A stretch of 64,000 bases of DNA from IMG/VR virus record IMGVR_UViG_3300043015_000560, positions 1-64,000 of that record. One strand, written 5' to 3'. Numbering within the stretch: the first letter of the stretch is position 1; the number at the start of each line of letters is the position of its first letter. This DNA is from a virus. Shown one piece after another: positions 40,478 through 58,819 of this stretch. The notes beneath the pieces are model-generated. The model saw nothing but the letters and a program-made list of their open reading frames with translations. It did not search any database and was not told where the DNA came from. Both the position numbers and the translations under genes were made by a program.

Positions 40478-46681
<6,204 letters not shown>

Positions 46682-46939: not shown

Positions 46940-47440
46940 ATGGCAACAATTACATTAAGATCAGTTAAGGGTAGTCCTTTAACTAATAATGAAGTCGATA
47001 CAAACTTTACCAACCTAAATACTGACAAATACCAATCCGGGGACTCAATCGTAGCCGCTGATTTAACAGCATCCGGAGATTTTTCAGTAACCGGTGAGAC
47101 TAAGCTTGGTACTACTTCGGGTGTTACAGCAGCAGGAACAACACAAGGTGACGCAACAGCGTTAACAAAAACCTTCCACGTTGTAACTAATGCGACGGCA
47201 GCACAAGGTGTCAAACTACCAGCAGCAGAAACCGGTAAGGTTGTTACAGTATTAAACGACACTTTGGTAAGTATTAAACTATGGCCTGAATCGGGCGATC
47301 AAATAGACGGTGGTAGCGTAGACGCAGCTAGAGATCTAGGTCCTGGCATGACTCTGAGGCTTGTAGCGATCTCAGGCGTTAAATGGAATTCGCTTTCAGA
47401 TACACTAATTTTTAACAGCTCAGGCACGAGGATTAATTAA
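46940..47440 (+). CDS. short fibre/adaptor protein
   Basis: N-terminal LRSVKGSPLTNNEVDTNFTNLN fibre-anchor motif; C-terminal IFNSSGTRIN. Confidence 0.65.
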   Translation: MATITLRSVKGSPLTNNEVDTNFTNLNTDKYQSGDSIVAADLTASGDFSVTGETKLGTTSGVTAAGTTQGDATALTKTFHVVTNATAAQGVKLPAAETGKVVTVLNDTLVSIKLWPESGDQIDGGSVDAARDLGPGMTLRLVAISGVKWNSLSDTLIFNSSGTRIN

Positions 47441-47442
47441 GA

Positions 47443-48834
47443 ATGAGACCTTTACGAATCAAAGCATCAGGCACTCCTATAACAGGTGCAAATTACCAGG
47501 GCTTACAAGAGATGAGCGATGGTGAAATTAATCAATATCTCTCAAATGTTATTACACAAAAGTTTGCCGATGACTCTGATGGTACAGGCACAGCTGAGTT
47601 AAACATTAACGGATCGGGTACTGGCATTGGTACATTCGTTGATACACAAAGAAACGATGCAATTGGCGCTCACCCTTCAGGTGGAGCTACCACAACTACT
47701 AATTACGCATTTAACCAAGTAACAACAGCAGCAACCGAAAGTATTACTGATAGAGTAGTTGGTTGGGATAACGCAATCAAACAAATGACTGACGGCGACT
47801 TAGATACTGACGTTTTAGATAAAGCGATTGATAGTATGGTTACCGAATCAGATTACACCGTTGGACAGTATTCACTTAGACCTACTGCTCCTACAGGCGG
47901 CACGTGGACATCTAGATATACAATTACAGACACCGCACAAGGCGGCAACTCCACAACTTACTTGTGGCAAAAGACTGCACCTACATCTAGCCCCAACTCA
48001 GATTTAGCAGCACTTAAAACTGACGGATCTTCTGTTAGAATGATGAGCGATGCAGAAATGGAACAGATGGTTCCTAGTTTTAGAAATAGAATCATAGATA
48101 CAAATATCGGAACATACAAGGTACAACAATCTGCTCCTTCATCTGGTGGTACTTGGGTACAGATGGGAGATTCCTTTAGTAACACTCAACAGGAAATAGA
48201 ATCTGAAAACTATGTAGGGAACTACACAGGATCTTACACCGGGGCTTATAACCAGGCGTTCTCAGGAACATATGCAGGTAACTACACGGGCGCCAAAACA
48301 TACACCGGTAACTATTCTGGAACATATGCAGGTAACTACGTGGGTGGTTATGTGGGCGCCAAAACATACAGTGGAAGCTACTCAGGTAACTACGCAGGAT
48401 CGTATCAAGGTAACTATGCAGGAACTTCAGCATATGCTGGAAACTATTCTGGATCGTATCAAGGTAACTATGTTCTATATTACGCAGGTTATGCACACGC
48501 TACATATACAGGATACTATTCTGGAACGTATACGGGTTACTACACAGGACCTAAGACATACACCGGGTACTACACTGGAACGTATACTGGTTACTACACA
48601 GGTAACTATGTAGGAACTTCAGCATATTCCGGAACCTATACAGGTTACTATGATGGAACCTATACAGGTAACTATGTAGGAACTTCAGCATATACAGGTT
48701 ACTACACCGGCTCATATACTGGGTATTTCTCAGGATCGTATTCAGGCACATATGCCGGAACATACGCAGGCGACACTATTCAAGCGAGTAAAGAAACACT
48801 TTCAACCATTGCACTTTGGTTGAGAACTGCTTAA
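47443..48834 (+). CDS. fibre-tip protein with YxGx repeat insertion
   Basis: GGTWVQMG and terminal LWLRTA resemble a collar/gp10-C-like domain flanking 188 aa of YxGx repeats. Confidence 0.65.
   Translation: MRPLRIKASGTPITGANYQGLQEMSDGEINQYLSNVITQKFADDSDGTGTAELNINGSGTGIGTFVDTQRNDAIGAHPSGGATTTTNYAFNQVTTAATESITDRVVGWDNAIKQMTDGDLDTDVLDKAIDSMVTESDYTVGQYSLRPTAPTGGTWTSRYTITDTAQGGNSTTYLWQKTAPTSSPNSDLAALKTDGSSVRMMSDAEMEQMVPSFRNRIIDTNIGTYKVQQSAPSSGGTWVQMGDSFSNTQQEIESENYVGNYTGSYTGAYNQAFSGTYAGNYTGAKTYTGNYSGTYAGNYVGGYVGAKTYSGSYSGNYAGSYQGNYAGTSAYAGNYSGSYQGNYVLYYAGYAHATYTGYYSGTYTGYYTGPKTYTGYYTGTYTGYYTGNYVGTSAYSGTYTGYYDGTYTGNYVGTSAYTGYYTGSYTGYFSGSYSGTYAGTYAGDTIQASKETLSTIALWLRTA
48211..48774 (+). repeat. 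mirror-symmetric YxGx tetrapeptide array
   Basis: 44 tetrads in blocks 7-5-5-10-5-5-7 separated by six KT/SA dipeptides. Confidence 0.9.
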
Positions 48835-48901: not shown

Positions 48902-49396
48902 ATGGCGAGAAGTAAAAAGAAGTTTGATGTCAAAGATGTCAAAGTTGAACTAATCGATCCTAAAAAAGCAAAAAAAGAACCTACCAAATTTGAATTTCCG
49001 TATTGGTCCAATAAGGAAGCAAAGCATCTTATTGCTACTATTGTTATGCCAGATGGCAGACGTAGCCTCGCTTCTATTATGGATAAGGATGGAACGAATC
49101 CCGACTATCTAGCAATACTAGAACAATTCACCGAAGAACAAATTGACGAAAATACCGCAGAGGGTCTAAAGCGCAGAAACGAAAATGTGCGTAGACAAAT
49201 GGAAAGGCGAGAAGCCGAAGCAGCAAGAGCACAACAAGAATCACTGTTTGCATCAAAGTTGGAAGCATTTGAAATACCTCTTATTAAAAACTCTACCAAC
49301 GTCGAGTTTAAAAAACTAATTCGAAAGTCCAAATCTCCTATGGAGGTAGCAGCATACGCTACGATATTGTTACAAAAAGAATTAGAATCCGAATAG
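48902..49396 (+). CDS. hypothetical protein (possible fibre chaperone)
   Basis: GGAG RBS; charged helical C-terminus; follows fibre-tip gene. Confidence 0.55.
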   Translation: MARSKKKFDVKDVKVELIDPKKAKKEPTKFEFPYWSNKEAKHLIATIVMPDGRRSLASIMDKDGTNPDYLAILEQFTEEQIDENTAEGLKRRNENVRRQMERREAEAARAQQESLFASKLEAFEIPLIKNSTNVEFKKLIRKSKSPMEVAAYATILLQKELESE

Positions 49397-49405
49397 GAAT
49401 ATATT

Positions 49406-50134
49406 ATGTCTAAGCGAGAAGGCGACGGTTTTGTAATTGTCGCAACTAAAATGCCAGGCTACTTTAGAGCCGCAATCAAACTAGCAGAGTCTATTATAGA
49501 CTTTTGGCCCGAAGCTAAAATTACTTTCTACACAGAAGAAAAATGGGTAGACACCGCACACCCAGAGTGCGAACTAAAACCTGGACAATATCAATTATTT
49601 GATAATGTAATTACATGGGAAGTCCCTAGTCATATTAGAGCTAAACTCTGGGCACTAGAACATACTCCATACGAAAGAACTTGTTATTTAGATTGTGATA
49701 TGGAATGTTGGCATGAAGATATCCAAGATGTTTTTGATCTACTCGGCGATAAAGATTTAGTCTTTACAAAGATAAGACCTTACAATGCCAAACTAACAAA
49801 ACTTTCAAACACAGAAGAAATGACTATGCACTGTGGTTGGTTTGTTTACAACGACAAACCTGATACACTGGCTCTAATGAGTGCGTGGTATGGTGAATAC
49901 TTACACCAACAAACAAAAGAATATGATATCGCACATTATCCTATAGACGCAATTAAATGGGATACTTTTACAATGTGGCGACTATTAACTTACAGCGATC
50001 ATAAAGTAAATTGGGGATTTATTAATGAGCCTGACGCAAGGTGGAACTTTGTAAACGGATACAAGGATGAAGAACTTCAAGGGACTGACATCGTTTTATA
50101 CCACTACACAATTCCTAATTGGCAGCTTAAGTAA
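49406..50134 (+). CDS. GT-A fold glycosyltransferase (GT8-like)
   Basis: KLWALEHTPYERTCYLDCD (DxD), HCGWFVY, DARWNF, LYHY. Confidence 0.75.
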   Translation: MSKREGDGFVIVATKMPGYFRAAIKLAESIIDFWPEAKITFYTEEKWVDTAHPECELKPGQYQLFDNVITWEVPSHIRAKLWALEHTPYERTCYLDCDMECWHEDIQDVFDLLGDKDLVFTKIRPYNAKLTKLSNTEEMTMHCGWFVYNDKPDTLALMSAWYGEYLHQQTKEYDIAHYPIDAIKWDTFTMWRLLTYSDHKVNWGFINEPDARWNFVNGYKDEELQGTDIVLYHYTIPNWQLK

Positions 50135-50757
50135 TGAGTGAAGTCGAGCAGTGGAAACTTTACAATGAGTGGACATACGACAACTTCTTTTCAGAAATTA
50201 AAGAGACAGATTCAGTTTTAGAATTGGGACCTTTAATCGGATTCCACACAGAACTTATCCAAAGAAGAAAACCAAAAATTCTTAAGGTTGTAGAACCTAA
50301 CACAGGTGACGCACTAGAGGCTTTAAAGGTTAAGACATCATTAAGTGATAATCAAATATACAATGGCACTGCAAATGATTATTACAAAGAACATAATGAG
50401 ACATTTGATACGGTAGTTTGTTGCGGACTACTTTATCACTTGCTAGCACCAGAACACTTGTTAGAGCAGATAGTAAACCGATCTAAACCTAAAAGAATTA
50501 TTATATCTAATTTAGAAGCAAAAGATTCTATTGTCAAGTATAATACTAGGGAAGATGGTAGAGAGGCGTTTGCTAGATCTGATGATAAAGGAATAACTAA
50601 ACCTATTAGATATGGAGTTTCTTTATCTGCAGATACAACACGAGGTATGTTAGAAAGTGTTGGTTATAAATGTTTGAGAAACTTAAATACAGTAGGTATC
50701 TGGGATAAGTATATATATTATTGGCAACTATATGAGGTAGACAATGAAATGGGTTAA
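50134..50757 (+). CDS. class I SAM-dependent methyltransferase
   Basis: VLELGPLIG, VVEPN, FDTVVCCGLLYHL. Confidence 0.8.
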   Translation: MSEVEQWKLYNEWTYDNFFSEIKETDSVLELGPLIGFHTELIQRRKPKILKVVEPNTGDALEALKVKTSLSDNQIYNGTANDYYKEHNETFDTVVCCGLLYHLLAPEHLLEQIVNRSKPKRIIISNLEAKDSIVKYNTREDGREAFARSDDKGITKPIRYGVSLSADTTRGMLESVGYKCLRNLNTVGIWDKYIYYWQLYEVDNEMG

Positions 50758-51394
50758 CATAAGCGACGAGCTATTAGATATTCTTCAACCGTACACCGAC
50801 TGGTTTTTTAGTCAAGACTTAACTGAACTTGAAAAACATATTGACGGGAAAAGAGCAGGCGACGAAACTATAGATACTGCCTGTGAAAAAGAATACTTAG
50901 ATATGATTGTTGCAAAGGATGGCGCCCATGTTGGATACCCAGAACATACAAAATCTATAGATATATTAATGGACGAAAGAACTCCTCGTGAACACAGAGA
51001 AAAGTGTCAAGAGTTAAATAGAGAATTGTGTGCTTACTTAGGTGCTAGAAATCAAGCAGTTCAAGTTTACTATCCTAAAGACGGATTTATGGCCTGGCAC
51101 AATAACTGGAATGCATCTGGCTATAATATTCTTTTATCTTATAGTCCAACGGGTAATGGATTCTTTAAGTATTTAGATCCTAAAACTAAAGAACTTGTTA
51201 CAATGAAAGATAAAGCAGGTTGGGCTTGTAAAGTAGGATACTACGGAAGGGGTAGAGAACCTGACAAAGTTTATTACCATTGTGCAGGTTCATATGAAGA
51301 TCGCCTTACTTTAGGGTTTGTTATTCCACATTTAGAATTGTGGCGTAACATGATTGAAGATATCTCAGGAGAAGATGCTACTTCTTACCAATAG
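50744..51394 (+). CDS. putative 2OG-Fe(II) oxygenase / cupin-fold protein
   Basis: YYPKDGFMAWHNN...YHCA...RLTLGF jelly-roll pattern; HxN in place of HxD. Confidence 0.5.
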   Translation: MKWVNISDELLDILQPYTDWFFSQDLTELEKHIDGKRAGDETIDTACEKEYLDMIVAKDGAHVGYPEHTKSIDILMDERTPREHREKCQELNRELCAYLGARNQAVQVYYPKDGFMAWHNNWNASGYNILLSYSPTGNGFFKYLDPKTKELVTMKDKAGWACKVGYYGRGREPDKVYYHCAGSYEDRLTLGFVIPHLELWRNMIEDISGEDATSYQ

Positions 51395-52055
51395 CCATAA
51401 ATCTATCGTAAAACTTTTTACCGTCCCACGAATAATAATATTGAATTGTCTTGCCACTATAATAAGTGTCCTTTAATCCTATATTTTCTATTAGCGCAAG
51501 TTCGCTATCAACACAATTAATGCCGTACATTTCTTCCATTACGTTAGAAGACTGACAAGCAAATATTGCATGCTTGTTAGCAGTATAAAGATCTTGTAAC
51601 GGATACATCTGTTCGCACCCTAAAGATATAACAACATCTACATTCATCTGATTAAGTTCGTCAAACGCAAAAGGAACATCTAAGTTCCAGTGATTAATCT
51701 TAATGAACTCTTCTTTAATATAATGCCCATTAAAAACTTTAGATAACTCTAAAGCCTCAGGATCAATATCGACCAAGTGTAGTTGCCCTACAGATAAGTT
51801 TTCACAAAGCAGAGGCACTAAAGGAATACCTAACCAAGAATTTAGAACAAGAATATTCAATCCTTCTTCTTTCATATAGTGTTCTTCTAGAACTTTCTTT
51901 AGTTCTTCCACCATCCAAATACCTGCTTCCATAGTATTCGGATTGAGAGCCTGTCTAAAGTCCTCATGTTTATGCTTCATTTCATGTTCGACTTTAGCTA
52001 GTCCATCGCCCCAGTGTTGGAGACTGTTTAAAAAATTATAGTTCAAATTTGACAT
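51378..52055 (-). CDS. methyltransferase-like protein, paralog of 904-1497 with degenerate motif I
   Basis: LNSWLG, VDIDP, DVVISLGCEQM, CQSSN, RFMAIGKK; ATG 52055. Confidence 0.6.
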   Translation of the reverse strand: MSNLNYNFLNSLQHWGDGLAKVEHEMKHKHEDFRQALNPNTMEAGIWMVEELKKVLEEHYMKEEGLNILVLNSWLGIPLVPLLCENLSVGQLHLVDIDPEALELSKVFNGHYIKEEFIKINHWNLDVPFAFDELNQMNVDVVISLGCEQMYPLQDLYTANKHAIFACQSSNVMEEMYGINCVDSELALIENIGLKDTYYSGKTIQYYYSWDGKKFYDRFMAIGKK

Positions 52056-52725
52056 CTTCTTTCCTTCCCATTGAATCAAATAAACAAACGTAAGGCATTT
52101 GTCTATAGACTTGTTTTTCTGTATCATGGGGCCAAATATAACCTTGGTTATAACTGTACGCCCACCCAATTGGAAAATATTTAATCCTAGCAACACCGCG
52201 GTGTCCGAAGAAATTATCTATTCCCCTGTAATACCAAAGTATCTGTTTTAGATGCTTGTTAAGATATAAAGTAATATCTTCGGTATTTAAATTATCATTC
52301 CATCTTAAAACTGACGAGTTCAAGTCAGTATACTTATGTGGAATGTGTCTTGTATCTTTATATTGAGTTTCCATATCATGCCAGTGTGTCTTAATGAAAC
52401 ACAAACAATCCTCAGGATCAAACTCAACCCATTCGTCTAAGTTTCTTTGAATGATAACATCTAAGTCGAAAAACATTTTCTCGCCCTTTTGACGAACTAC
52501 ATTATCATCAAACAAGTACATTTTATTCCACCACTTTTCTAAGTTATTATTTTTAGGTAGTGGAATAACATTTATATCTTCAGACAATCCTCTAGGGTCT
52601 TCTGTTAAACAAAAGAACTTAAACTCTGAGCTAATGTTCTTAACACAGGATTCGTAAATTGCTTGAACGTGCTTGTGGGAATACTTGTTTCCCCACTTCA
52701 CGGTATAAATGTTTATCATTGCCAA
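52036..52725 (-). CDS. GT-A fold glycosyltransferase
   Basis: KWGNKY, WWNKMYLF, FFDLDV (DxD), NSSVLRW, GIDNF, YSY. Confidence 0.7.
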   Translation of the reverse strand: MAMINIYTVKWGNKYSHKHVQAIYESCVKNISSEFKFFCLTEDPRGLSEDINVIPLPKNNNLEKWWNKMYLFDDNVVRQKGEKMFFDLDVIIQRNLDEWVEFDPEDCLCFIKTHWHDMETQYKDTRHIPHKYTDLNSSVLRWNDNLNTEDITLYLNKHLKQILWYYRGIDNFFGHRGVARIKYFPIGWAYSYNQGYIWPHDTEKQVYRQMPYVCLFDSMGRKEDVKFEL

Positions 52726-53528
52726 TGCTTTAATAGTTTAGGATCTACCAACTCATCTTGTTTGGTGTGTCCTCTACTCTTATCCTCAAATGGTAGTAAG
52801 TCTACATTAAACACGCAAACAATACAACCTTCTCTATAAACTCCGACATCCATATCACCACTGTCCCAATCTCTACCTCTGTTATACGAATAGGCGTATT
52901 CAGATGGGAAGTAGTCCCACAGGTTTTCACCATAGATGCCCCATTTCCAACTGTGATAGTTATCTGTTCCGTCGGTATAAGTGAACCATATCTTTTCTTG
53001 ATTCTCTAATACATCGTTCCAAATAATCTCACATTGATCATCGCTCCAAACTTGACAGGACCCGTTTGTGTATGCGCCGTGTGAAAGTTTGAATCTTCGT
53101 GTTTTCATTGGGCGGGGATCTTGCCACCATGAACGCATCTTTGTAGGACGCTCCATGTTGTAAGTAATGATAGGTTCTAAATCACGTTGAATGATGACAT
53201 CCAAGTCAAAGAAAATAAAGCGGCCAGTAGGTTTATCGTCTGCAAAATTATGAGTATTGAATACAAACGTCTTGGGTCTATCCCAACATCTTGCCATGCC
53301 GTACTTGAAGTTGTCGCCACCAAACCAATACTTAGGATGGATATTGGGAATATCAGGAAAATCAATAACTTTAATATCATCTAAAAGTCCTTCTGCATCG
53401 TCGGTATAACAATAAAAATGAAAGTCGTGTTTTTTGTCGACATGCCGTTTCGTCATGTTATACAAACGATTAACAAAATGAGGCCCATACTTTGAGCCCC
53501 ATTTAGAGCAGACTATATTTACCCTCAT
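52716..53528 (-). CDS. GT-A fold glycosyltransferase
   Basis: KWGSKY, CYTDD, FFDLDV, NGSCQVW, GTDNY, YSYNRG. Confidence 0.7.
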   Translation of the reverse strand: MRVNIVCSKWGSKYGPHFVNRLYNMTKRHVDKKHDFHFYCYTDDAEGLLDDIKVIDFPDIPNIHPKYWFGGDNFKYGMARCWDRPKTFVFNTHNFADDKPTGRFIFFDLDVIIQRDLEPIITYNMERPTKMRSWWQDPRPMKTRRFKLSHGAYTNGSCQVWSDDQCEIIWNDVLENQEKIWFTYTDGTDNYHSWKWGIYGENLWDYFPSEYAYSYNRGRDWDSGDMDVGVYREGCIVCVFNVDLLPFEDKSRGHTKQDELVDPKLLKHWQ

Positions 53529-53776
53529 AGTTCTTCCACGACGTGTTGAATGACAAAATCTCTACCATACATCAAGCTATAGTTAACTAGCTCAGAAACA
53601 ATATCCTTTGTCTTTTCCTCAAATTGATTTTTATTACAATGAACGACAATAGAAACAAACTTGCCGTTTCTAACAGAGTCGATTACATCGTCCGTATCTT
53701 TTTTATCCCAAGTATCAAAGGATCCAAAATACGCATCCGCTTTCCTTGTTGATTTATACATTTTTGCACGCTCCAC
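53525..53776 (-). CDS. hypothetical protein
   Basis: Short ORF overlapping neighbours in the operon. Confidence 0.5.
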   Translation of the reverse strand: MERAKMYKSTRKADAYFGSFDTWDKKDTDDVIDSVRNGKFVSIVVHCNKNQFEEKTKDIVSELVNYSLMYGRDFVIQHVVEEL

Positions 53777-55259
53777 ATTTTAGTTTACAAATGTTGCTAG
53801 GGTCTAGTTTTAATTTATTATTGAAGTATGCTGTGTAAAAAGCATTCGTCAAAATAGACTCTAGCGGTTCTAACTTACAATTGTTGGCCTTCCAATTATA
53901 TATGATGTCTGTATCTTCATAAGGATTAATGTCTGCTTCTAGTATTTCTCTAGCAGTGTAAACACACGGGAAAACATTTCCTCGCTTGTCTATGTAACAT
54001 TTATTCTCAATTTTAGATTTACATCTAACCTTCTTCTCAAATTTAACTTTTACATCTACATAGTCTGCCTCTTTAGGTTTTGTTTGTAGAGTATCAAGTT
54101 CTATTAACTTATAGTCTGGAAGTTCTTTAACAATTATTCTTTCTTCTTTAACTGGTAGTTCAGGTGGCTTGTTTTCAATAAAAGTAAAGCCACTGAATTT
54201 ATGTTTTTTGGATAACGCTCTTGCCTCTTCAATGTCATTATCAGATTGTGTGGTTCTAGTGTATTGCCAAAAAACACGAGCTCCACTCTTTAACAAGGCC
54301 TTTGCATTTGTAATTTGTTTATCAAAGTCTTTGTTATTAATGTCATCAATTGTAGCAGTGATGTTACCCATTTTTCTATATAGTATCCCGGTGCTACCCC
54401 ACCAAAATTCATCATGTGATGTTAAGTCTGTTAATACATCTACACTCACACCTTCAAACTCTAGAAAGTATTCAGAGATGTCGTAAAAGTCCTCACATAA
54501 ACTTGGCTCTTCTACGTCATTGGATAAAATTAACTTGGTCATTCTAGACTTTCCTAGAAAGTCCTTATTAAAGATCCTAACAACCTCATCATAGCTAAAT
54601 CCATTTACTTCCATTTCTATTTCAGAAGGCAAGTAAGGATACAAATCTATAGACCTATTATAACAGTTTTCTACGTAGCTGTCAAGAGTATGAGTGTACC
54701 AATAAGGAAAGGTAACGATATCATCTGTAAGACTAATTGGATAGTCTTTGTTTTGTGTATTTAAAAACGGAAGTGATGGTAGTTCGTTAACTTGAAACTC
54801 TTGTTTGAATTCGTAGTTATAAAATGTTATGTCTTGTTCGTCTCTATCCCATTTTTGTATCAGATTCTGTACATATTTGTTCTTATGTATATAATATGTA
54901 ACATTTTCGTCTTGCATTAAAACTTTATCAATACCACTGCCTTTGTACGATAAAAGGGCCATAGGATCATTTAATAAGACGTTTGGAGTAGTAAAAAGAC
55001 TAACTCCATTATCCTTGGTATGTTGTATTAAGTCTATTTCTAACCACTGCTTTCCATACTTTGGAACATGGAATTGAATGCCGTCTACAAAGCCGTCTCG
55101 CTTTTTAGTGCTATTGATATTGTCGAGTTCTTCCTGTGTAGTGAAAACAAAGAAGTCAAAAGGCTGCTCAATCAGGTTCTTTGCCTGAGTATAGAAATTG
55201 TTTATATGGATTTGACTGTACTTACTATCCAGTAAGTTTGCTATTAAAGTTAGCTCCAT
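53754..55259 (-). CDS. fusion of degenerate glycosyltransferase domain, degenerate radical SAM barrel and SPASM/twitch domain
   Basis: N-terminus aligns by eye with neighbouring GTs but lacks DLD; no CxxxCxxC; C-terminal C..CYIDKRGNVFPC...CKLKCG. Confidence 0.55.
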   Translation of the reverse strand: MELTLIANLLDSKYSQIHINNFYTQAKNLIEQPFDFFVFTTQEELDNINSTKKRDGFVDGIQFHVPKYGKQWLEIDLIQHTKDNGVSLFTTPNVLLNDPMALLSYKGSGIDKVLMQDENVTYYIHKNKYVQNLIQKWDRDEQDITFYNYEFKQEFQVNELPSLPFLNTQNKDYPISLTDDIVTFPYWYTHTLDSYVENCYNRSIDLYPYLPSEIEMEVNGFSYDEVVRIFNKDFLGKSRMTKLILSNDVEEPSLCEDFYDISEYFLEFEGVSVDVLTDLTSHDEFWWGSTGILYRKMGNITATIDDINNKDFDKQITNAKALLKSGARVFWQYTRTTQSDNDIEEARALSKKHKFSGFTFIENKPPELPVKEERIIVKELPDYKLIELDTLQTKPKEADYVDVKVKFEKKVRCKSKIENKCYIDKRGNVFPCVYTAREILEADINPYEDTDIIYNWKANNCKLEPLESILTNAFYTAYFNNKLKLDPSNICKLKCGACKNV

Positions 55260-56007
55260 GCCAATGCCTCAAAAGTTTCTCATCTTGTAATTCACTCATT
55301 TTAATCTGCGCCTTAGCTGCAGGGTCTGGAGTTAAGTCTGTATTAAACAAACAAACTTTATACTCCTCTCTATATTTATACTTCTCTTTATCCTCTTTAT
55401 GATGAGCTCCTCTATTATAAGAGTAAACCCAATCCCAAGGAATGTTGCCCCAGAACTTTTTTTGTCTCCAGTAATGGTAGTTATCTGATCCTTTAAAGAA
55501 TGTTTTAAATACTACATCTTGGTGTTCTAGAACATCGTAGTAAATTTTCTCACATTGACTCCCATTCCAACACATCATACTAGAATTAAAATAAGTTCCT
55601 CTAATATCAATAAAGAATCTCTCATGTTGTTGTCCGGGTGGTTGCCATTTAGATTCGATTATTCTAGGTTTGTTTGCTAGATTGTATAGATCGTTTATAT
55701 TGTTTTGAACAATAACATCTAAATCAAAGTAACACCATTTACCCTCATAGCCTAGCCACTTATGAGAGTTGAATACAAGGAACTTAGCACGATCCCAACA
55801 AAAGTTTTCCTTTCCAAACCAATAGTCTGGATGCAGTGGCTCAATATTGGGGATAGGCGCGGTGGCGCAATCGAGTCCTTCTGCGTCATCTGTAAAACAG
55901 GTAAAGGTGCAGGGTCGAGTATAGTGTCTCTCAACCATTGCCTTTAAATTGTTTACATATTCAGGAGAATATTTACTTCCCCATTTGATACATACGAAGT
56001 TCATCAT
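55225..56007 (-). CDS. GT-A fold glycosyltransferase
   Basis: KWGSKY, CFTDD, YFDLDV, FNSSMMCW, GSDNY, YSYNRG. Confidence 0.7.
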   Translation of the reverse strand: MMNFVCIKWGSKYSPEYVNNLKAMVERHYTRPCTFTCFTDDAEGLDCATAPIPNIEPLHPDYWFGKENFCWDRAKFLVFNSHKWLGYEGKWCYFDLDVIVQNNINDLYNLANKPRIIESKWQPPGQQHERFFIDIRGTYFNSSMMCWNGSQCEKIYYDVLEHQDVVFKTFFKGSDNYHYWRQKKFWGNIPWDWVYSYNRGAHHKEDKEKYKYREEYKVCLFNTDLTPDPAAKAQIKMSELQDEKLLRHWHGANFNSKLTG

Positions 56008-56623
56008 ATCTTTTTGCTATGTCCTCTTGAACTGATTCTTGTCCATTCAATAATGCTATTGTTGCGTCTTTTATTTTACCACCATCAAACCAAAATGAAT
56101 AAACCTCATTTTCGGGAAAGTGTTCAAATGTAAAACTCTCATGGTATAAAAACCTATCATCACCTGCATACTTTACCATATAGTAATCTTTATTCTTTTC
56201 CCAGTAATCATATATATGTCTGTTATCTTCCCACATCATCACACTAGAATTAAAATTGCTTAAATAATTATATGACCACCTACTGTCTTTGTGATAAGGG
56301 AATTCTTGAGGTTTCCAGTAAGTGTAACATATGATGGGGTTCTTGTCAAGCATTTTCCACAAATGTTCTATACCTTTTTGTATTCTAATATCTAAGTCTA
56401 AATAAAGAACTTTGCCTAAGTTTTCAAGTTTGAACAGTTTAACCTTTTCCCAATGCCCTTCAATTTCATGATCTATAGGTATTGTTGTTATATTTTTATT
56501 GAGTCCAATAGGATTATCAGTTACACAGACGCGGTTGTAGTCACCTGGAATAGAATTATAAATACGATTAACGTCCTCAGACGTATATTTGTCCCCGTAT
56601 TTTAATGTCAAAATTGTTTTCAT
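55973..56623 (-). CDS. GT-A fold glycosyltransferase
   Basis: KYGDKY, WEKVKLF, YLDLDI, FNSSVMMW, GDDRFL, YSF. Confidence 0.7.
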   Translation of the reverse strand: MKTILTLKYGDKYTSEDVNRIYNSIPGDYNRVCVTDNPIGLNKNITTIPIDHEIEGHWEKVKLFKLENLGKVLYLDLDIRIQKGIEHLWKMLDKNPIICYTYWKPQEFPYHKDSRWSYNYLSNFNSSVMMWEDNRHIYDYWEKNKDYYMVKYAGDDRFLYHESFTFEHFPENEVYSFWFDGGKIKDATIALLNGQESVQEDIAKRYDELRMYQMGK

Positions 56624-57286: not shown

Positions 57287-58819
57287 ATGGCAACAGTAAT
57301 TCAAATTAAAAGAAGTACCGCAGCTACAGCCCCTACAACATCGGATCTAAACGAAGGCGAACTGGCGTATAGCCAGGATAAAGCCAACTCAGGTGATTCC
57401 GCGATTCTTTATATTGAATCGGTTGATTCCTCAAATCAACAGGTTGTACATAAAATCGGTGGTAAATTTTACACCGATATCGTAGACGGTGCCTCTTCTT
57501 CTAACACAGCTTCACAGCTTGTTAAGAGAGACGCAAGTGGAGATTTCTCTGCAGGAACAATTACAGCTGATCTTACAGGTAACGTAACAGGAGATTTAAC
57601 CGGAGATGTCACAGGTGACGTAACAGGCGACCTTACTGGTAACGTAACGGGTAATGTCACAGGTGACGTAACAGGCGATGTAACCGGCGATATCACTGGT
57701 GCAGTAACAGGTAACGTAACAGGTGATGTAACTGGTGACCTTACAGGTAATGTAACAGGTAACGTAACAGGTGATGTAACTGGTGACCTTACAGGTAACG
57801 CAGATACAGCAACAACAGCAGCGGCACTAACAACAGCTAGAGCAATTGCTCTTACAGGTGACGTAACAGGTACAGTAAATTTTGACGGTTCAGGCGATGT
57901 AAGTATTGCAACTACAATGGCAGCAGACGCTATTGCACTTGGTACAGACACTACAGGTAACTATGTTGCCACAGTAGCAGACGCAGGAAGCGGCAACCTT
58001 ACAGTAACTGGCTCAGGTTCTGAAACAGCAGGTGTAACACTTGATCTTTCTAACTCAGGCGTATCCGCAGGTTCATACGGTTCTACAACAGCAGTTCCTG
58101 TTTTAACAGTAGACGCTAAAGGTAGGGTCACTGCTGCAACTACAGCAGCAATTGCAACATCATTTGATATTGCAGCGGACAGTGGAACAAATGATACAGT
58201 AGCTGGTGGCGAAACACTTACTTTTGCTGGTACAGCTAACGAAGTAACAACAACCGTATCAGACAATCAAATTCAAGTTGGACTAGCAACAAACCCAACA
58301 ATTGGCGGTAACCTAACTGTATCTGGTAACTTAACAGTTTCTGGAACTACAACACAGGTTAACTCTCAGACATTGACAGTTAATGATCCATTATTTAAAG
58401 TAGCAACTGGCAACTCTAGTGACGCTTTAGACATTGGTTTTTATGGTATCTTTAACGACGGCGCTGACAAATACTCTGGTTTATTCAGAGATGCTAATGA
58501 CGGTAAATACAAAATGTTTACTGGCTCTAGCGTTGAGCCTACAACAACTGTTGACACTACAGCAAGTGGCTATTCCGTAGCAACATTGGTTGCCAACATT
58601 GAAGGCAACGTAACAGGCGGAACTATTTCTGGACTATCAGCAGCGATTGGTGTTGCAGACGGTGGTACTGGCGCAAGCACTTTTACTTCAAACGGTATCG
58701 TTTATGGTAACGGAACTAGCGCTCTACAAGTAACAGCAGCAGGCACAGAAGGGCAACTGTTAATGGCAGATGCTAGCGGCACGCCTGTTTGGGCAACACT
58801 AGACGGCGGTACGTTCTAG
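57287..58819 (+). CDS. tail/neck fibre protein
   Basis: N-terminal IQIKRS..P..L..GELAY (Mtd_N-like), VTGD/VTGN repeats, terminal LDGGTF. Confidence 0.8.
   Translation: MATVIQIKRSTAATAPTTSDLNEGELAYSQDKANSGDSAILYIESVDSSNQQVVHKIGGKFYTDIVDGASSSNTASQLVKRDASGDFSAGTITADLTGNVTGDLTGDVTGDVTGDLTGNVTGNVTGDVTGDVTGDITGAVTGNVTGDVTGDLTGNVTGNVTGDVTGDLTGNADTATTAAALTTARAIALTGDVTGTVNFDGSGDVSIATTMAADAIALGTDTTGNYVATVADAGSGNLTVTGSGSETAGVTLDLSNSGVSAGSYGSTTAVPVLTVDAKGRVTAATTAAIATSFDIAADSGTNDTVAGGETLTFAGTANEVTTTVSDNQIQVGLATNPTIGGNLTVSGNLTVSGTTTQVNSQTLTVNDPLFKVATGNSSDALDIGFYGIFNDGADKYSGLFRDANDGKYKMFTGSSVEPTTTVDTTASGYSVATLVANIEGNVTGGTISGLSAAIGVADGGTGASTFTSNGIVYGNGTSALQVTAAGTEGQLLMADASGTPVWATLDGGTF
57571..57800 (+). repeat. 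(V/L)TG(D/N) tetrapeptide coding repeat
   Basis: 12-nt period acaggtgacgta/acaggtaacgta; bounds approximate. Confidence 0.85.

Follow-up and report, generated by a model that had tools for sequence, protein, structure and literature searches.

Out-and-back fibre tips and long beta-hairpins are both already known, the former from gp37 of phage T4 and the latter from MPEG1. The structure of the distal gp37 tip was reportedly described by Bartual et al. in 2010. The gp37 needle is a trimer with seven His-coordinated iron atoms (PMC6957217). The MABP domain of MPEG1 (perforin-2) has a long and twisted beta-hairpin inserted in it, which binds membranes through a hydrophobic and basic tip (PMC7593815; PDB 6sb1, 6u23). 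This study describes the gene of a 463-amino-acid (aa) protein, P0001, which contains a long Tyr-x-Gly-x (YxGx) array. The gene lies in positions 1 to 64,000 of the virus record IMGVR_UViG_3300043015_000560, and this whole stretch of 64,000 nucleotides (nt) is called the window below. The protein is probably a fibre- or adhesin-type virion protein of an uncultured marine T4-like myovirus, composed of an anchor and one very long two-stranded antiparallel beta-hairpin of evolvable length, in which residues i and j pair at i+j=702.

The YxGx chain runs out and back as in the T4 gp37 tip, and its N- and C-terminal flanks lie in one proximal domain. Unlike gp37, the YxGx protein has no HxH motif and no sequence or fold match to gp37. 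Its anchor is predicted to be monomeric and beta-prism-like, and its rod consists of strict YxGx repeats and varies in length. A long hairpin on a beta-prism-like domain, as the models suggest for the YxGx protein, is also the arrangement of the MPEG1 MABP domain, although the MPEG1 hairpin is short and non-repetitive. Gp38 of Salmonella phage S16 contains a polyglycine-II (PGII) sandwich, and other glycine-rich polyproline-II bundles are also known. Like gp38, the YxGx array is a glycine-rich repetitive module of a T4-like phage fibre, which in gp38 is situated at the distal end. PGII has Gly at every third residue, whereas the YxGx array has Gly at every fourth, two positions from an aromatic residue, and this is the pattern of a beta-strand. 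Collagen and PGII repeats were rejected as models, since they need Gly at every third residue and the period of the array is 4. Cross-strand aromatic ladders are known from the single-layer beta-sheet of OspA and its 'peptide self-assembly mimics', and an 'aromatic rescue of glycine' is known in beta-sheets. The YxGx array resembles these flat two- or three-stranded sheets, which have cross-strand Tyr pairs beside Gly and no hydrophobic core. By analogy, the same stabilisation by Tyr pairs and Gly is likely to be the physics of the rod. The OspA-type examples are short, engineered or local, whereas the YxGx ribbon would be natural and would have about 94 rungs and register marks.

The array occupies 48,211–48,774 of the window, which is exactly residues 257–444 of the open reading frame (ORF). 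Our own parser divided it into 7-KT-5-KT-5-SA-5(4+YAGY)-AHAT-4-KT-5-SA-5-SA-7, where the numbers are tetrads. This reproduced independently the block parse of a preliminary description made from the DNA letters alone (7-KT-5-KT-5-SA-4-[YAGY AHAT]-4-KT-5-SA-5-SA-7). The flanks named in that description were also present, GGTWVQMG at residues 234–241 and LWLRTA at the terminus. The pattern [YF]-x-G-x occurs in 47 tetrads. The 188 residues of the array comprise 50 Y, 42 G, 31 T, 18 S, 17 A and 11 N (27% Tyr, 22% Gly, 26% Ser+Thr), together with three Lys, two Asp and one His. No HxH was detected in the array, and the single His is H352. Tyr is more frequent at tetrad position 4 in the returning arm than in the outgoing arm.

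No inverted repeat was found in the array DNA, in agreement with the earlier statement, and an inverted DNA repeat was thus rejected as the source of the symmetry. The two halves form a direct 198-nt repeat (48,262–48,459 versus 48,520–48,717) with 72% identity. Y-x-G-x-Y is the same when it is read backwards, so a direct tandem expansion of the DNA automatically gives arms that can pair in antiparallel orientation. The mirror symmetry of the protein stands beside a direct repeat of the DNA because Y-x-G-x is palindromic.

The preliminary description had proposed that block lengths and interruptions are mirror images around the centre. The inner five-tetrad blocks look symmetric in any periodic array, so the test must come from relatives, and for these inner blocks the claim is trivial. 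The claim held for the equal outer blocks and the equal interruption counts around a unique centre, with KT always opposite SA, and it held also in relatives of other lengths. The outer N-block equals the outer C-block in the 121 closest relatives (4/4, 5/5, 6/6, 7/7, 8/8, 9/9, 11/11 and 13/13), and the number of interruptions per arm is equal as well (2/2, 3/3, 4/4 and 5/5). KT in one arm of these relatives is always opposite SA (or SN/ST) in the other. The query P0001 (7/7), P0003 (6/6, 73% identical) and P0004 (5/5, 66%) form a series with steps of one tetrad per outer block. Interruption-free variants have arms of approximately 27–34 tetrads. A simple tandem duplication (U-U) was rejected, because outer blocks of 13 accompany a centre of 14 tetrads, not 26.

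For the family-wide test, the turn was set by the position-independent motif [YFW]-x-[not G]-[YFM]-[YF]-[GAS]-G, and 143 of 242 complete members, those with a single tip motif, were used. The left arm minus the right arm was exactly 1 in 107/143 members, and |L-R| was at most 3 in 124/143. Symmetric arms were found at 35 distinct lengths from 8 to 136 aa; after shuffling of the arms among the classes, the mean was 2.9 and the maximum was 10 (10,000 permutations). The distant member P0223 has irregular breaks, at 66, 72, 86 and 108 in the left arm and at 71, 78, 92 and 114 in the right arm counted from the end. Distant members with irregular break spacing are therefore mirrored, not direct. The mirror symmetry is not due to chance. 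Paired length changes in both arms, which had been put forward for a check by aligning homologs, were found in the relatives as matched insertions and deletions (indels).

Co-variation was analysed in 73 distinct sequences with the outer two blocks in common in both arms. The mutual information between the arms, after average product correction, peaked on the mirror diagonal. The top three pairs all had an offset of -1 and were aromatic positions. The phi coefficient of the Phe/Tyr state was 1.00 for L8-R7, 0.97 for L12-R11 and 1.00 for L34-R33. For the non-partners L8 versus R33 and L34 versus R7 it was 0.07, indicating separate events, each shared with the mirror partner only. A test of co-change was run on a tree from the N-terminal domain (N-domain) alone. 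On this tree L12 and R11 changed 8 and 7 times, and 6/6 supported independent contrasts went in the same direction (p=0.031). The contrasts agreed in 3/3 cases for L34/R33 and in 1/1 for L8/R7, and the control pairs were mostly without co-change. The aromatic partners over all pairs were 447 Tyr:Tyr, 152 Phe:Phe and 55 mixed. F273 and F429, the sole Phe residues of the outer blocks of the query, are mirror partners.

The co-variation fixes the antiparallel register i+j=702 (query numbering). In this register, every outgoing Tyr is opposite a returning Tyr and every Gly is opposite a Gly, and each two-residue interruption gives one Lys:Tyr rung and then one Tyr:Ser rung. Y347:Y355 closes the turn, G349 is opposite A353, and the apex is Y350-A351-H352. 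An out-and-back antiparallel hairpin of about 90 + 90 residues had been suggested before; the mirror indels and the co-variation support it, at about 94 + 93 residues. The tip had been assigned to LYYAGYAHA, and the register likewise places the apex at YAGYAHA. Tyr ladders had been favoured over metal sites as the stabilising element, and both the absence of HxH and the Phe:Phe/Tyr:Tyr co-variation agree with this.

The same co-variation bears on a beta-solenoid, in which the 22-residue super-repeat (5 tetrads + 2) would be one coil and the Tyr residues would stack in ladders as in models of the ice-nucleation protein. Same-phase positions of successive blocks would be neighbours in such a coil, yet they are uncoupled (L8 versus R33/L34, phi 0.07), whereas the mirror partners are coupled. 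A solenoid would fit the period of 22 aa and the direct DNA repeat of the two halves (72% identity), and solenoid models with Tyr ladders exist. However, a coil gives no reason for outer blocks and interruption counts to be equal, or for a unique centre to be conserved. There is also no fixed coil length, the break spacing being 22, 26, 13 or none over about 30 tetrads depending on the lineage, and the C-terminal strand returns to the N-domain. We consider the solenoid scarcely credible.

Within the insertion, the family tip motif Y-x-[LRIV]-[YF]-[YF]-[GAS]-G-xxx-G-x-[YF] is conserved more strongly than any other part. Variability at the tip is limited to the three apex residues, and the hypervariable central loop for which the preliminary description had proposed a check was not found in the family. 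In the shortest members (P0209, P0204, P0222 and P0168) the insertion is the turn motif alone. We infer that the tip may contact a receptor or the host surface.

The N-domain of approximately 250 aa, with a G[TS]W motif, and the 19-residue C-terminal strand (consensus type T[IV]...(E)T.ST..L[WY].R.A) are kept in nearly all complete members, which range from 287 to 2503 aa. Between them lies the sole variable part, whose length ranges from 9 residues to over 2000. The array is inserted into this conserved domain, between its last two strands. An AlphaFold2 (AF2) monomer model of the query gave a predicted local distance difference test (pLDDT) of 85–96 for the N-domain and the C-terminal strand, and the values in P0139 (339 aa) were above 95. 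The C-terminal strand itself had a pLDDT of 87–98 in the two models, and that of the hairpin base was high. Strands 245–276 of the query were paired with 424–462, and 285–307 with 393–415; the boundary sums were about 700, at low pLDDT. The array of the query was thus drawn as paired strands on a confident base, but the pLDDT of the distal array was 25–50 in both models.

A pLDDT below 50 and the Tyr-, Gly- and Ser/Thr-rich composition are also what a low-complexity tract without a fixed fold would show, either as a FUS-like sticky tether or as an amyloid-prone segment, with the symmetry as a by-product of repeat expansion. Such a tract does not explain the strict period-4 frame with two-residue frame shifts at mirrored places, nor a Phe/Tyr co-variation that is specific to mirror partners. 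The conserved turn motif and the match of arm lengths over 35 length classes also speak against it, and we regard it as very improbable.

An exhaustive structural aligner placed the same small group of MABP-type beta-prisms on top for both models (query/P0139). The matches were the C-terminal domain of Mp2Ba1 (8b6v, Z 6.8/6.2), the C-terminal domain of Plu-MACPF (2qp2, Z 6.7/6.0), perforin-2 P2 (6sb1, Z 5.1/5.1) and the MABP domain of MVB12B (3tow, Z 5.2/4.1). The second model had a further MABP-type match at Z 3.0, so that the top four or five matches were all of this type. The next unrelated match had a Z of 2.5–2.8, and all Z values of the MABP group were below the caution line of 8. These alignments covered 110–120 residues, the C-terminal strand included, with a root-mean-square deviation of 3.5–5.4 and a sequence identity of 7–13%. 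The predicted anchor domain thus weakly resembles MABP beta-prisms, and Z values below 8 may reflect a common arrangement only. The match to T4 gp11 (1el6) had a Z of just 2.4–2.5 over 44 residues in both models. A host domain of the collar/gp10-C type, as first supposed, is thus not supported, the best matches being the MABP beta-prisms.

The anchor also bears on a gp37-like trimeric needle, the form the hairpin had been given at first. In such a needle, three out-and-back chains would be intertwined on a threefold axis to give a six-stranded rod with a Tyr/Gly core. The phage fibre context, the out-and-back topology common with the T4 gp37 needle, and a Tyr/Gly face that looks like a packing surface are all in line with it, and oligomer-dependent fibres typically show a low monomer pLDDT, as the array does. 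The anchor, however, is predicted to fold as a compact monomer at pLDDT above 90–95, which intertwined trimeric fibres rarely do, and it resembles a single-chain beta-prism with its own internal pseudo-threefold symmetry. Besides the missing HxH, there is no sequence similarity to gp37, gp10 or gp12, and the structural match to gp11 is low. A C3 bundle would also put all Tyr:Tyr rungs at the same height, leaving no knobs-into-holes packing. The compact monomeric fold predicted for the anchor speaks against an intertwined trimer, whereas a lateral bundling would be compatible with it. The trimeric needle is unlikely in our view.

Several observations weigh against the single long hairpin that we prefer. 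No confident three-dimensional hairpin was obtained, since the distal array had a low pLDDT in both models. A phi of 0.6–0.9 was found between some non-partner positions, so that some phylogenetic background is included, and the tree test was built on few contrasts. Among 54 distinct arm-length combinations, 19 are asymmetric, several of them being false motif hits. The arms of P0139 differ by 9 extra residues, and P0006 (484 aa) and P0024 (441 aa) carry one extra block of 22–23 residues in the outgoing arm only. Among cultured phages, the family is seen only in the sequence-only record of phage C48C1. A free two-stranded ribbon of 30 nm is without solved precedent, so some higher-order packing is likely. 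The extra block of P0006 and P0024 may represent an evolutionary intermediate of matched expansion, a tolerated bulge or an assembly error.

For the single long hairpin we propose the following mechanism. The last 19 residues of the chain would complete the beta-prism-like anchor of about 250 aa. Residues 257–346 would run out, an aromatic knuckle (Y347...Y355, with its apex at Y350-A351-H352) would turn the chain, and residues 356–444 would run back. On one face, cross-strand Tyr:Tyr (or Phe:Phe) rungs would alternate with Gly:Gly, and the other face would present Thr/Ser/Ala/Asn and the extra Tyr of the returning arm. At intervals of 22 residues, a two-residue insertion in both arms would swap one Tyr:Tyr rung for Lys:Tyr plus Tyr:Ser. 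We speculate that these insertions mark the register and keep the repeat, which is otherwise degenerate, from slipping. At full extension, the hairpin would measure about 30 nm. Tandem DNA expansion would supply the pairable arms and selection would keep them equal, from 0 to more than 136 residues per arm, which would make hairpin length an evolvable trait. The anchor may be docked to the baseplate or to an adjacent fibre protein, and the rod may then project from the virion and hold the aromatic tip away from it, so that the tip can touch the host envelope, for which the gp37 tip and the MPEG1 hairpin are precedents.

A more specific form of the rod is tentative and, in our judgement, possible rather than probable. 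It would be a free-standing two-stranded beta-ribbon, not a trimer, with a length of tens of nanometres. It would form a natural single-layer 'tyrosine zipper', with a register set by the Lys:Tyr/Tyr:Ser rungs and a length adjusted through matched indels of a tetrad or of 22 residues. The principle of the free-standing ribbon would scale from the bare turn in 287-aa members to arms of about 1000 residues in phage C48C1 (3347 aa). The coordinates of all features are listed in Table 1.

Table 1. Features of the YxGx gene and its neighbours, in window coordinates.
Feature	Position	Strand	Evidence or remark
Whole gene, 463 aa (P0001)	47443..48834	+	ORF list; unnamed virion-fibre family
N-terminal anchor domain, residues 1-244, conserved family-wide	47443..48174	+	AF2 and structural alignment
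Outgoing base strand, residues 245-256, exits domain past GGTWVQMG	48175..48210	+	AF2 strand 245-276; P0139 counterpart 237-257 at high pLDDT
Outgoing arm, residues 257-346, blocks 7-KT-5-KT-5-SA-4	48211..48480	+	Parse; mirror pairing with 356-445, register i+j=702
Interruption K285-T286	48295..48300	+	K285:Y417, T286:A416, then Y287:S415
Interruption K307-T308	48361..48366	+	K307:Y395
Interruption S329-A330	48427..48432	+	S329:Y373, A330:T372
Tip, residues 347-355 (YAGYAHATY)	48481..48507	+	Co-variation register; family tip motif
Returning arm, residues 356-444, blocks 4-KT-5-SA-5-SA-7	48508..48774	+	Parse, pair table
Interruption K371-T372	48553..48558	+	K371:Y331
Interruption S393-A394	48619..48624	+	Mirror of K307-T308
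Interruption S415-A416	48685..48690	+	Mirror of K285-T286
C-terminal return strand, residues 445-463 (TIQASKETLSTIALWLRTA), re-enters anchor domain	48775..48831	+	Conservation, AF2, beta-prism alignments
2067-aa DUF4815/phrog_358 virion protein, opens conserved fibre module past gp6-gp7-gp8	40478..46681	+	Profile matches, synteny
166-aa fibre-like ORF, upstream	46940..47440	+	Stop 2 nt before YxGx start; upstream in 69/80 loci, others cut by contig ends
164-aa ORF, highly charged, helical, downstream	48902..49396	+	Directly downstream in 80/80 loci; no family

The source of the window is an 80-kb IMG/VR record with an estimated completeness of 48%. The genes follow one another in the order tube cap, gp5-like hub, gp6, gp7-like, gp8-like, DUF4815/phrog_358, an 87-aa ORF, a 166-aa ORF and the YxGx gene. 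The gp6 protein is 34–36% identical to gp6 of Pelagibacter phage HTVC008M and of Synechococcus myoviruses, indicating that the phage is a separate lineage of T4-like marine phages. For the analysis of synteny, 80 related viral loci (contigs) were fetched. The order DUF4815, orf87, orf166, YxGx gene, orf164, orf242, orf216 and convergent paralogous genes was kept in 80/80 loci, which places the YxGx gene in a fibre module. By its position, the 164-aa ORF is a candidate fibre assembly helper. The genes at 49,406–56,623 (orf242, orf216 and the convergent paralogs) are syntenic in 52–78 of the 80 loci. Pfam gave Methyltransf_23 at the threshold (50,134–50,757) and GT8 below the threshold (55,976–56,623) in this region, so the family evidence for a putative modification/glycosylation cassette is weak. 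The hydroxyl-rich outer face of the ribbon may be decorated by this neighbouring transferase-like cassette.

Approximately one third of the related contigs (L039-L047, L051, L053-L056, L064-L069, L074-L076 and L079-L082) have about 2 kb of extra sequence that separates the orf166 homolog from the YxGx gene and contains one or more additional genes. The extra sequence of L079 and L082 cross-matches a 510-aa fibre-like protein of the window (57,287–58,819, + strand). This protein has about 20 copies of [DN]-[VLI]-T-G at roughly residues 88–170. In tblastn searches, it cross-matches the arrays of YxGx homologs in 30/80 loci.

At least 1000 homologs were matched in a protein collection clustered at 90%, and at least 575 family clusters were obtained at 50% identity (E<=1e-3). 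All matches to the family were viral or metagenomic. Pfam and PHROG gave no family above threshold for the 463-aa protein or for eight long relatives. A profile search of PDB sequences gave a chance match only (E 0.39), and Foldseek found nothing at E<=0.001 in PDB and BFVD. The ESM Atlas contained the sequence but no model of it, and the nearest clusters there were unnamed viral proteins. The 40–52 kb part of the window had no match to phage records in megablast, and tblastn against phage records retrieved phage C48C1 alone, with 28.7% identity over the N-domain. Bacterial and archaeal genomes were scanned as well and contained no relative, and thus no clue to the host. No description of the YxGx family turned up in literature searches on Tyr/Gly repeat fibres, on C48C1 or on DUF4815.

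In P0027, P0046 and P0119 (655–724 aa), the array is split at its centre by about 100 aa of non-repeat sequence, which is rich in aromatic residues and Pro and has no Pfam family. The insert occupies the position expected for a distal head domain, as the head does in gp37. The phage C48C1 (Kyanoviridae record, L003, OQ984149.1 141011-151054) encodes a 3347-aa protein with the same N-domain and a query-like C-terminal tail (...TYTLYVRVA), and huge Yx[GR]x tetrad arrays lie between them. By eye, about 1035 repeat residues are followed by a small domain near 1300–1370 and then by about 1005 repeat residues. Six or so globular domains interrupt the repeats, in the second half only. The C48C1 protein would be consistent with a giant out-and-back fibre whose returning arm bears knobs.

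Within the literature and databases searched, two features are new: the self-pairing of a strict four-residue repeat over about 94 rungs, and a family whose two arms change length in matched steps. If our reading is true, it would provide a clean natural case of co-evolving indels. The Y:Y and G:G rungs with their register marks would amount to a design rule for building rigid beta-ribbon rods to a programmable length. For uncultured marine T4-like myoviruses, there would be a candidate organelle for host reach or host recognition, the length of which could be read from the sequence.

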